DNA of 41,012 nt from contig JBFZAQ010000096.1 of NCBI GenBank assembly GCA_041308885.1, positions 1-41,012 of the forward strand, in the 5' to 3' direction. Origin of the DNA: Candidatus Omnitrophota bacterium. GTDB lineage: Bacteria; Omnitrophota; Gorgyraeia; Gygaellales; Profunditerraquicolaceae. The notes under the pieces are model-generated. The model searched no databases. It had not been told where the DNA came from and saw only the letters and a list, made by a program, of their open reading frames with translations. Of this stretch, positions 1,361-3,904 are shown piece by piece. How positions within the stretch are numbered: the first letter of the stretch is position 1; each line of letters begins with the position of its first letter. The position numbers and the translations under genes are program-made.

Positions 1361-3904
1361 TTAGCCAGCCTTCCAATTAATTGTATAGACCCGGATAGGG
1401 CCCTGATTATCTTCCAGCTCTTCATTAAAAAGAGACGTGAACGCCGATAAACCCACTCCCTTAAAAAAATAGAGCCGGGAAAACATTGATTGCACCAACT
1501 CCTCATCGCAGACAGCCAAACGGTACGCCTGGCCATCCTGAGACAAAATTACCGAATAATCAACATCACTATCGGCAAATGACGCCTTCTTTAAATCCAC
1601 ACCGTCAAGATAATACATATTTTTAGGGATATGCCACTCTTGGGAAACAGCCTTATAATATTGTACCGAGTGATCAGCCAAATTTACTATAAAACCATTA
1701 TCAAAAGTAAGTATTGAGCCGTGCTGCTCACAGTTCTGCGAGACTGAATAAAATTGCCGGGGCGCGGATATCCAATAGAGAATCTGCTGGCTGGGTAAAG
1801 CGCTCAACAACTCATACAGTTGCTGCGCTTTCTGGATATCATAATGCCGGCTGCCGAGCAGAAACTTGAGAAAGGCTTTCTTTTTCAAGGACTTAAACTT
1901 CTGATAAATATCCGCCTTGAAGAAATCCCACCCGCCGATAAATGAAATACGCGACATTTTACTAAGCAGGCTCGGCTCTACCACCATACACGCTGGCGCA
2001 GGTTGGTATAAGTAACTAAGAAAAAGCTCGCGCTTATTCTCTTCAGGAATATATTTGGCCGCTGCGCTGACAGCCCCTTTGGAATCCTTAATAATAAACT
2101 GATTGATAATCGACAATGCCGCAAAATTGTCGTATCCCTGCTCGCGTAGCAGATCGAAAGCGGCGTTAGCCCCAGAATTAACCATGCGTAATATTCCCAG
2201 CGCCTCTTTTTCGTCGGTAGCTAACAAGGCCCGGGCCATCCAATAAGTTACCGGTTTATCTTGGGTTGCGCCGTCAAATAAGACCCTGCGGTCAGCGGCG
2301 AATTTAAACCAATGGCCGTAGTCCCACCATGAATTAATGATTGCCTCAGACGGAGTTTTTTCTTGAATAGACCCCAGTGCTTTCCACCAGGCGCGGGTCA
2401 TCATCGGAAGGGTATTGCTAAAAACCAGCGATCGCGCCGAGAAAAAATACGTCAGCACCGCTACCGCCAAGCAAGTAACAATACCGGGCCTAATACTCAA
2501 TCTGCCGCCACGCTCCAGCCGCCGGCTAGCCCACTGGATAAAACTGTCCGCCCCGAGCCCGAATGCCACTGACAAAGGGACAACCAGTAAGAGGCTAAGC
2601 CTTACTGCTTTCATCGCCCCGATAAACGCGACACTCATCCAGAGGACAAAGACGAATACGATAAAGGTGAACTCATAAATTATATTCTTCTTGCGGATTA
2701 CCGTCGCCAATAAATAAAGGGCTGCCGTTAACAAGATAATGCTGCCTCCGGCATTCTGGATCACGGCTTGGAAGGGCGCGCTGCGTAATTCCTGAACGGT
2801 AAGAAAAACATTCGGCCAAAACTGACTATCCAGCTGGTCTTTAAGCCAAAACATCTTTAACGGATCAGTGAGAAACCGCGCGGCCACCTCGACTCCGGAA
2901 AAAAAGGATACCCAGCCTAAAGAAAGACCGATAAAAACCGATCCTGACGCGGCGGTTATCCGGGCATAATTATATCTACGCTCAAGCAGTAAATGAATAA
3001 AATAGTAACCTAACCCCACGATAAAAGTGTCAAAGAGCAGCCACCAGATATCCCAGGTATAGGCAAATAAACCCATACCTGCCCCGGCCAGTGCAGCATA
3101 GATCAAGCGTCTAACTCCTGAAAAAGAAGCCCTCAGACTTAAGTATAACGCCCAAACCGCCAACACTGAATATATACCTATATATACGTCATTATCGAAC
3201 CAACCGGCTTGGCTGCGGAGCAAAAAAAGCGGGCTTAAACCCGCGCACAAAGCGGCGGCAAAACCCGCGGTTGAATTTGCTCCCACTTTCAAGGACTGGG
3301 TGAAGAAAAAAATCACTATCAGTAAAATACTCGACAAGACTACCGGTAGATAGAATAAAACAACGGTTAAAGGAACCCCGGGATAAAACATATGGATCAA
3401 CCGATACGCGGCTACGCCGACATAAACATGAACATTCTTATGGAGAGTCTTGGTAGCCGGATAACCCAACGGCGCGCACATATACCGGTCATACAGCCGC
3501 GAGCCTTGATACTCATAAGCGTTTCCGCCATCCTTTAAACTATTACGCACAATCCGGGCCCAATGGTAAGAATCAACTTCCAATAAAAAAGGAAAACCCG
3601 CGTCATCGAGATACTTGCTCCGGCAATCTGCATATTTCCGGGATACATCCCGCGCAAAACCTAATTTGGGATCACTCCGGGAACTTTTATATAATTCATT
3701 CTGCAACGCAGCCTGAACAATCGAGCCGTCTTGTGGATACATCTGCTTTGCTAAGCCCTGCGTCTTATTGACCAGATCGACTTCGGCCTTAAAACGGGCT
3801 TCGTTCTTACAAGCGGACATCCGTAAGGGCCCTAAACGTATAAAGACGTTTATCCCCAGGGCAATCACTAATAAAAATATCCCCAGTATATATTTTTTAT
3901 TCAT
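1361..3904 (-). CDS. STT3/PglB/AglB-type oligosaccharyltransferase homologue (polytopic membrane domain plus periplasmic domain)
   Basis: Contains WWDYGHW (WWDYG motif), [11 protein letters not shown] (first acidic loop motif, compare NDGYAF in PglB), GWFDNDVY (second DxD, compare YYDTDML) and TVQEL (TIXE/SVSE-type motif). There are about 13 hydrophobic segments before a ~350-aa soluble C-terminal domain. Confidence 0.75.

Follow-up and report, generated by a model that had tools for sequence, protein, structure and literature searches.

A probable AglB/STT3-type oligosaccharyltransferase with DPANN archaeal relatives encoded between queA and tgt in Candidatus Omnitrophota

Why should a bacterium of a candidate phylum carry a gene for an N-glycosylating enzyme between queA and tgt, with no gene of glycan assembly beside it? 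The question is raised by a contig of Candidatus Omnitrophota (assembly GCA_041308885.1, contig JBFZAQ010000096.1), whose positions 1-41,012, analyzed here at full length, are referred to as the window. In the list of open reading frames (ORFs) and their translations, the frame at 1361-3904 on the minus strand opens with ATG and encodes 847 amino acids followed by a stop codon, exactly where an initial annotation had placed a complete oligosaccharyltransferase (OST) of the STT3/PglB type. Lipid-linked N-glycosylation in bacteria is usually described as confined to the epsilon- and deltaproteobacteria (Lombard 2016, PMC4973528), and deep-sea relatives have been noted as further bacterial cases (PMC8342417). 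The answer at which we arrived, and which we hold to be likely, is that the gene encodes an active, single-subunit N-oligosaccharyltransferase of the AglB/STT3 type, and that it is a lone gene derived from one transfer out of DPANN archaea and inherited vertically since.

The protein belongs to the STT3/AglB/PglB oligosaccharyltransferases (Pfam PF02516 and PF21436, CAZy GT66). In the hidden Markov model search against the STT3 family that the initial annotation had proposed, it passed the thresholds for both domains, scoring 66.9 bits (E = 3.2e-18) with STT3 (PF02516; curated cut-off 24.5) and 32.2 bits with STT3-PglB_core (PF21436; curated cut-off 23), while its score with TIGR04154 (archaeo_STT3, the archaeosortase-A-associated OST) was 40.1 bits, below the cut-off of 450. 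HMMER, run exhaustively over 1.84 billion cluster representatives, identified 2215 relatives; 850 of them reached E <= 1e-30, and among the top 150 of the 2215 most were aligned over nearly their full length. A word-index protein search, run both with the single sequence and with an alignment, yielded a single weak match besides the protein itself. When a profile of 67 family members was compared with the sequences of the PDB, only OSTs were found: Archaeoglobus fulgidus AglB-L (1.7e-31), human STT3A (6.6e-28) and Campylobacter lari PglB (2.7e-22), followed by yeast Stt3 and STT3B, with no other GT-C family matched at E <= 1e-3. Searched as a single sequence against the PDB, the protein had eukaryotic STT3 (STT3A/STT3B; PDB 6S7O, 6S7T, 6EZN) as its top match (6e-9).

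The AlphaFold2 model, computed from an alignment of relatives in the representative library, had a predicted local distance difference test score (pLDDT) of 92.3 and a predicted template modeling score (pTM) of 0.91. It contains 13 helices of transmembrane (TM) length within residues 3-496 and a mixed alpha/beta C-terminal domain (residues 504-847), which we assign to the periplasm. A Kyte-Doolittle scan resolved only about nine distinct hydrophobic segments, so the count of 13 TM segments rests on the helices of the model. In a Foldseek comparison with the PDB, ranks 1 to 20 were all occupied by PglB, AglB and STT3 chains, the best being PglB (C. lari/jejuni; PDB 3RCE, 5OGL, 6GXC) with E = 5e-20 and a TM-score of 0.70-0.72 normalized to PglB. 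The next GT-C folds, DPY19 (1.7e-7), AftA (1.2e-5), ArnT (1.6e-5) and PMT (8e-3), were 13-17 orders of magnitude weaker. Placement in another GT-C family (ArnT, PMT, DPY19, AftA/Emb), with which the initial annotation had contrasted its own assignment, is ruled out by profile and fold alike; profile searches put the protein in the OST family only, and its identification as an STT3-family N-OST was thereby confirmed.

The start codon deserves a comment. The NCBI call (P0001, 835 aa) begins 12 codons after the ATG at 3904, the two forms differing in 3869-3904. Alignment with 12 orthologues, in which an M-x-KK N-terminus and the first TM helix are conserved, backs the longer, 847-residue form, and its numbering is used throughout.

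All motif strings quoted in the initial annotation are present in the translation ([11 protein letters not shown] at residues 107-117, GWFDNDVY at 234-241, TVQEL at 369-373 and NSWWDYGHW at 524-532), and alignment to A. fulgidus AglB (AfAglB) and human STT3A agrees with its statement that the catalytic and peptide-binding signatures are complete. Conservation was counted in 177 relatives, 34 from the Omnitrophota clade and 143 from the DPANN side, with an overall identity of 22-38%. The catalytic aspartate D111 of the first DXD motif (3572-3574, external loop 1, EL1) is aligned with D47 of AfAglB (G-N-D) and with the aspartate of E-F-D in STT3A, and is invariant in all 177 sequences. Of the "ExD" by which this motif had been described, only the aspartate stands, position 109 being E, G or D in the orthologues. 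The second DXD motif, D237-N-D239 in EL2 (3188-3196), holds the predicted metal ligands and is aligned with D161-H-H163 of AfAglB and D-N-E of STT3A; D237 is found in 34/34 sequences of the Omnitrophota clade and 139/143 of the DPANN side, and D239 in 34/34 and 141/143. The TIXE-type motif of EL5, T369-V-Q-E372 (2789-2800), reads "TVaEL" in the family and is aligned with "SVSEH" of STT3A, its glutamate E372 again being invariant (177/177). In the crystal structure of AfAglB, the metal is bound by D47, D161 and H163, with a water molecule bridging it to the TIXE glutamate (PMC8342417).

Just before the TIXE-type motif, residues 351-360 of the model have a lower pLDDT of 67, as expected for a mobile EL5. 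R435 (2600-2602), on a late TM helix, is likewise invariant (177/177) and is aligned with the arginine of "qnRFayy" in AfAglB and of "vRLml" in STT3A; by analogy with R375 of PglB and R426 of AglB, which we take to play this part, it is probably a ligand of the lipid (pyro)phosphate. The WWDYG motif, W526-W-D-Y-G530 (2315-2329), coincides with WWDYG of both AfAglB and STT3A, W527 being present in 177/177 sequences and both W527 and G530 invariant family-wide; in OSTs this motif hydrogen-bonds the +2 Ser/Thr of the sequon. D544-G-A-T-Q548 (2261-2275), aligned with "DNNTW" of STT3A, occupies the position of the DGGK or DNXTZNX[T/S] motif. Here D544 and Q548 are nearly invariant, neither the lysine nor the double sequon is present, and the family consensus is FDGxSQN.

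The last, putative peptide-binding element is E643-PSLLS-K649-MSR-I653 (1946-1978), on a helix spanning residues 645-657 of the model. As it fits the pattern E<>KXXX(M/I/P), it is probably a DK motif of the variant form. Both K649 and I653 are kept without exception in 13 Omnitrophota orthologues, and lysine is found at the K649 position in 24/34 sequences of the Omnitrophota clade and 137/143 of the DPANN side. The DK motif has been defined as DXXKXXX(M/I), with E<>KXXX(M/I/P) as a variant, and all PglBs are reported to carry MXXI, the MI motif (PMC3703281). Judged by this pattern, the Ser/Thr pocket is probably of the lysine type, as in AglB and STT3, and not of the isoleucine type of PglB.

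Taken over the 13 Omnitrophota orthologues, which are only 28-38% identical, the set of D111, D237/D239, E372, R435, WWDYG and D544 is invariant. The retention of catalytic and peptide-binding residues at an overall identity of 22-38% points to purifying selection on both catalysis and peptide binding. Between the first TM helix and the catalytic aspartate, EL1 carries a helical insertion that is peculiar to this family and about 74 residues long (residues 25-98, 3611-3832). It is modeled as three helices (30-55, 61-77 and 83-98) with pLDDT of 89-96 and is present in the family consensus. As a separate observation, residues 508-553, the region of WWDYG, gave a weak NCBIfam match (20 bits, well under the cut-off) to HaoB, a hydroxylamine-oxidation accessory protein of nitrifiers, which suggests that HaoB contains an OST-like C-terminal core segment.

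Among the characterized OSTs, AglB-L (PDB 3WAJ, 5GMY, 7E9S) is the best match by sequence profile. It has in common with the window protein the plan of 13 TM helices and a C-terminal domain, the equivalents of D47/D161/H163 and the string WWDYGHW, and it is likewise a single-subunit enzyme; its variant DK motif, E<>KXXX(M/I/P), with a Lys-type pocket is probably shared as well. Identity in the structural alignment is, however, only about 13-14%, and the window protein differs in the insertion of EL1, in DxD instead of DxH in EL2, in DGATQ instead of DGGK and in the position of the catalytic aspartate (111 versus 47). Since the window protein belongs to a diderm bacterium, undecaprenyl phosphate presumably takes the place of dolichyl phosphate as its carrier. 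PglB resembles it as an enzyme of bacteria that has one subunit, an inner-membrane position facing the periplasm and a TIXE-type motif in EL5. In contrast to PglB with its Ile-type MI motif, the window protein and most of its family have lysine at the Ser/Thr-pocket position, and whereas the PglB gene lies in a pgl glycan-assembly cluster, the window OST is without glycan neighbors within 41 kb. Inspection by eye of a few EL5 positions (e.g. residue 375) in the 13-sequence alignment showed no conserved arginine there, and an equivalent of PglB R331, the arginine that reads the -2 position, was not identified; this slightly favors a plain N-x-S/T sequon over D/E-x-N-x-S/T. The eukaryotic STT3 proteins share the pattern E-x-D-x-Y-x-x-x-R ("EFDPYFNYR"), "DNE" in the place of "DND", and probably also their DK-type Lys pocket, but the window protein has TVQE instead of SVSE in EL5, lacks the DNXTZNX[T/S] double sequon, has a different C-terminal domain and is not expected to have partner subunits.

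The window protein is in fact a member of an uncharacterized, AglB-like family found in DPANN archaea. When one genome per GTDB species was scanned, 38 loci were obtained, 22 of them from Woesearchaeota or Nanoarchaeota. These archaeal relatives align with the window protein almost from end to end at 22-29% identity and have the EL1 insertion, the C-terminal domain and the catalytic residues in common with it. A further 14 of the 38 loci belonged to Candidatus Omnitrophota and encoded full-length proteins at 28-38% identity, one of them in the closed genome of Candidatus Velamenicoccus archaeovorus LiM (NZ_CP019384.1). The tgt, queA and ruvB genes of the window, 60-75% identical to their counterparts at the Omnitrophota loci, likewise place it in this phylum. 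The archaeal genes are found in glycan-biosynthesis clusters and are often extended at the N-terminus to 900-1200 residues, whereas the Omnitrophota proteins have about 850 residues and their genes stand isolated in housekeeping operons. At one Woesearchaeota locus (L023, 9488-18983), the AglB gene is directly followed by genes for glycosyltransferases of families GT2 and GT9 (the latter a heptosyltransferase) and for an NTP-transferase, an epimerase, a PfkB kinase and a HAD/cytidylyltransferase; at L032, from the single-cell genome of a nanoarchaeote, the OST gene lies near those for UDP-glucose dehydrogenase, PGM/PMM and an NTP-transferase. From the cluster at L023, heptose may be a component of an N-glycan in DPANN archaea.

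The phylogeny that the initial annotation had called for was computed as neighbor-joining (NJ) trees rooted on distant archaeal AglBs. The OSTs of Omnitrophota formed a single clade (bootstraps 72/100 and 38/50) that lay within the DPANN sequences, and of the top 145 library representatives 20 fell in the Omnitrophota clade and about 125 on the DPANN side. The nearest relatives are thus DPANN AglBs and not PglBs. The label "PglB-type" holds in so far as the protein is an OST; the likeness to PglB does not, given these relatives, the probable Lys-type motif and the weaker profile E-value with PglB. So far as is known, nearly all archaea have an OST and few bacteria do, and together with the nesting among DPANN sequences the simplest account is one ancient transfer from archaea to Omnitrophota followed by vertical descent. 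We consider a single old transfer in this direction to be moderately supported. The GC content of the gene and of its third codon positions (0.465 and 0.513) matches that of its neighbors, as would be expected for an old acquisition.

Several points weigh against this reading. The trees were built simply from distances, their support is moderate and their outgroup remote, and the labels of some contigs from archaeal metagenome-assembled genomes are unverified. The DK assignment is a sequence pattern, and at the position of K649 isoleucine is found in 5/34 representatives of the Omnitrophota clade. No gene of lipid-linked-oligosaccharide assembly occurs within the 41 kb of the window, and none was found among the identified housekeeping genes in the flanks of the Omnitrophota loci, which were scanned in part. 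The initial annotation had stated that no glycosyltransferase, flippase or sugar-modification gene adjoins the OST gene, and indeed none of these families, nor any of sugar-nucleotide metabolism, was matched by the window ORFs of at least 120 aa. Three such ORFs lacked any Pfam match; the 596-aa ORF at 30864-32654 was considered as a hidden glycan enzyme and rejected, as it reads as a soluble secreted protein with a signal peptide and not as a glycosyltransferase or flippase. Finally, OSTs of all three domains hydrolyze lipid-linked oligosaccharide (PMC8342417).

This last point and the want of linked glycan-assembly or acceptor genes are what can be said for the first of three alternatives, namely that the fold has been kept and the role has changed, the protein mainly hydrolyzing a lipid-linked glycan into free periplasmic oligosaccharides or using a non-protein or non-Asn acceptor. 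The unique 74-residue EL1 insertion and the C-terminal domain of its own could be read in the same sense. Campylobacter PglB, too, releases free periplasmic oligosaccharides. However, WWD, TVxE and the helix with K649/I653, which a pure hydrolase would not need, show conservation just as strict as that of the catalytic acids, and the archaeal members with the EL1 insertion sit in typical glycosylation clusters. We therefore regard such a change of role as unlikely, and the "repurposed STT3 fold" that had been offered as an option is disfavored by the same conservation of the peptide-binding motifs. The other option, a stand-alone N-glycosylation enzyme in a diderm of a candidate phylum, is the probable one, judging by the complete signatures and the absence of glycan neighbors.

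The position of the gene suggests a second alternative. Upstream lies queA (3907-4896, minus strand; TIGR00113, 391 bits) and downstream tgt (201-1355, minus strand, opened at TTG 1376 in the mechanical ORF; TIGR00430, 517 bits), both far above their equivalog cut-offs. The junctions read TAG-cc-ATG between queA and the OST gene and TAA-agaat-ATG between the OST gene and tgt; the tight packing described initially is real, with gaps of 2 and 5 nt in place of the "3-5 nt" then given. A scan for promoters and terminators in the window gave consensus-level noise only, and a terminator-like hairpin at 3244-3229 was dismissed because it lies inside the OST ORF. The order queA-OST-tgt was found at 13 Omnitrophota genome loci with both flanks and at one cut locus, and in a metagenome scan at 8 complete and 4 cut loci. 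Counted by side, queA was upstream at all 13 genome loci in which this flank was present and at 12 metagenome loci, and tgt was downstream at 14/14 Omnitrophota genome loci. A larger block, ruvB-queH-(spoIID)-queA-OST-tgt, was present at 11 genome loci; its order is kept in L001-L011 and L016, spoIID being undetected in L008 and L016.

Preservation of this order across deep divergence, with gaps of 2-5 nt and queH in the same block, is what would speak for an OST tied to queuosine metabolism, for instance by serving preQ1/queuine salvage from within the membrane or as a regulator co-evolving with QueA and Tgt. A lineage at two loci speaks against this. It lies inside the Omnitrophota clade, sister to the subclade of the window protein in the NJ tree, and its OST gene stands between dapA and dapB (L054, 3001-5568; L051, 2983-5574) in the order lysA-dapF-dapA-OST-dapB-aminotransferase-folK with small gaps, which makes this the second housekeeping operon with an inserted OST gene. 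The link to queuosine is thus probably positional and not functional. On a basal bacterial branch (L058) the OST gene adjoins genes for GT2, T2SS-K and CtpA, and none of the archaeal loci has queA or tgt as a neighbor. Moreover, the whole block with ruvB, trmD and rplS is syntenic, so that the order is not specific to the OST; at one locus (L001), tgt is followed by trmD, rplS, rnhB, a UPF0102 gene and folate genes. No tRNA gene and no Rfam family, the preQ1 riboswitch included, was found in the window, and the active site of an OST faces away from the cytoplasm, where tRNA resides. We consider a role in queuosine metabolism highly improbable, and the queuosine context is probably meaningful only as an address; the tRNA-modification operon of the initial annotation holds as a conserved position and is no evidence of a functional tie. 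An echo of the E. coli operon queA-tgt-yajC-secDF, with its link to protein export, was likewise rejected, as trmD-rplS-rnhB lie downstream at L001. The near-zero spacing of a lone OST gene within constitutive housekeeping operons suggests steady expression.

The remaining alternative, a decaying relic of horizontal transfer or an artefact of assembly or binning that now serves no function, is the least credible of the three: although the OST diverges faster than its neighbors (28-38% identity against about 50% for queA and 60-70% for tgt) and a degenerate tandem copy exists on two metagenome contigs (L055, L060), the ORFs are full-length and intact at 26 loci, the closed genome among them, the catalytic residues are invariant, the gene lies inside bacterial operons on contigs of up to 1.97 Mb and so in no chimera, and the truly decayed copy (L055b, with WWNFG and the DxD lost) is clearly different and has an intact copy beside it. 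On these two contigs (L055, 5574-7442, and the same in L060), two OST copies stand in tandem between queA and tgt. The second, of 622 aa, has GWAGLEPY for GWFDTDPY and WWNFG for WWDYG, lacks TIXE and the Asp region of EL1, and gave no Pfam match at either locus; by these signs it is likely a catalytically dead paralogue next to an intact enzyme.

An active N-oligosaccharyltransferase of the AglB/STT3 type would thus work as follows. The inner-membrane protein, with a cytoplasmic N-terminus and 13 TM helices, would expose D111 of EL1, D237 and D239 of EL2 and E372 to the periplasm, where they would hold a divalent cation (Mn2+ or Mg2+) and activate the amide of the acceptor asparagine. R435 would bind the phosphate or phosphates of the polyprenyl-linked glycan, WWD (526-528) together with K649/I653 on the helix of the C-terminal domain would grip the +2 Ser/Thr of an N-x-S/T sequon, and the mobile EL5 loop would clamp the substrates. 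The glycan, pre-assembled on a carrier of the undecaprenyl type by genes elsewhere in the genome, would be transferred en bloc to exported proteins. As to its history, an ancestor of Omnitrophota may have gained the gene once from a DPANN archaeon resembling Woesearchaeota or Nanoarchaeota; the neighborhood of glycan genes would then have been lost, with vertical descent in constitutive housekeeping operons, the usual site being queA-OST-tgt. In this account, membership of the family, fold, conserved motifs, synteny and the topology of the trees were observed, and activity, donor, acceptor sequon, sidedness in the membrane and the direction of transfer are inferences.

The rest of the window holds housekeeping genes. 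Upstream of queA follow a gene with a SpoIID domain (4896-6044) and queH (6302-6874), both identified by Pfam. Undecaprenyl-diphosphate synthase is encoded by uppS (23238-23972; Pfam Prenyltransf, E = 1.3e-84); its product is the probable source of the lipid carrier, although it is an ordinary housekeeping enzyme and not specific to the OST. These three lie on the minus strand, as do ruvB, scpA, trpS, infB, nusA, rimP, proS, ispG, rseP, dxr, cdsA, purA, serA, clpP, tig, lptB, lptC/A, kdsC and kdsD, and OmpA is also encoded in the window. The presence of LptB, LptC/A, KdsC and KdsD, which serve lipopolysaccharide (LPS) transport and the Kdo (3-deoxy-D-manno-oct-2-ulosonic acid) pathway, confirms the diderm host that had been assumed from the start. 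All ORFs taken as genes, over 1-41012, are on the minus strand, and the GC skew is negative in each 2-kb bin; such a one-directional run of housekeeping genes is unusually long.

A few further features of the window were observed. Whereas queH and ruvB are neighbors in related genomes, they are parted here by an insert of about 2.7 kb (6879-9560) with a Fic/DOC gene (6879-7301), a small ORF upstream of it (7301-7570) and a 172-aa ORF without Pfam match (8358-8876). The latter is flanked by inverted repeats of about 150 nt (8110-8262 and 9079-9230, 85-89% complementary), and further direct repeat copies are found at 7927-8050/8229-8352 and 9103-9223/9363-9483. The insert looks like an accessory or mobile cassette with repeats resembling miniature inverted-repeat transposable elements. 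The trigger-factor ORF (36413-37291) has only 292 aa, with N- and C-terminal domains and no Pfam match to the central peptidyl-prolyl isomerase domain, and in the ORF upstream of lptB (38047-39102, 351 aa) LptC and LptA/OstA-N domains are fused.

How much of this is new? The OST family is well known, and automated Pfam annotation already tags the protein. No paper in the literature library searched links Omnitrophota with an oligosaccharyltransferase; term searches in two papers on Omnitrophota genomics turned up neither an OST nor protein N-glycosylation, and literature pairing Omnitrophota with N-glycosylation concerned mostly an unrelated fucosidase reagent. What is new is an AglB-type OST subfamily common to DPANN archaea and Omnitrophota, together with its phylum-level distribution in bacteria, its probable archaeal origin and its unusual genomic isolation. 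The mechanism holds no surprise; the range of N-glycosylation would be truly extended.

If the proposed function is correct, a whole, ecologically widespread phylum would be added to the bacteria with N-glycosylation, and with an enzyme of the archaeal/eukaryotic (Lys-pocket) type instead of PglB. The history would be that of a gene passed long ago from one domain to another, DPANN archaea and Omnitrophota both being lineages of ultra-small cells. In the absence of linked glycan genes, the question becomes which lipid-linked glycan is used, perhaps one common to LPS or capsule synthesis. For glyco-engineering, an AglB/STT3-like enzyme long at work in an undecaprenyl-using diderm would be a candidate for the modification of unrestricted N-x-S/T sequons in E. 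coli. Omnitrophota are ultra-small bacteria, some of which prey on archaea. As a tentative idea that we think possible rather than probable, archaeal-type N-glycosylation of DPANN origin may belong to the core traits of the phylum as a whole, fixed in constitutive housekeeping operons, passed on vertically and perhaps indispensable, with N-glycans, perhaps archaeal-like, coating pili and giant adhesin-like proteins and mediating attachment to the host. Omnitrophota would then supply bacterial OSTs whose N-x-S/T pocket is eukaryote-like and which use undecaprenyl-linked donors, and no bacterial phylum before them would have had N-glycosylation as a housekeeping function, as it is in archaea and eukaryotes.

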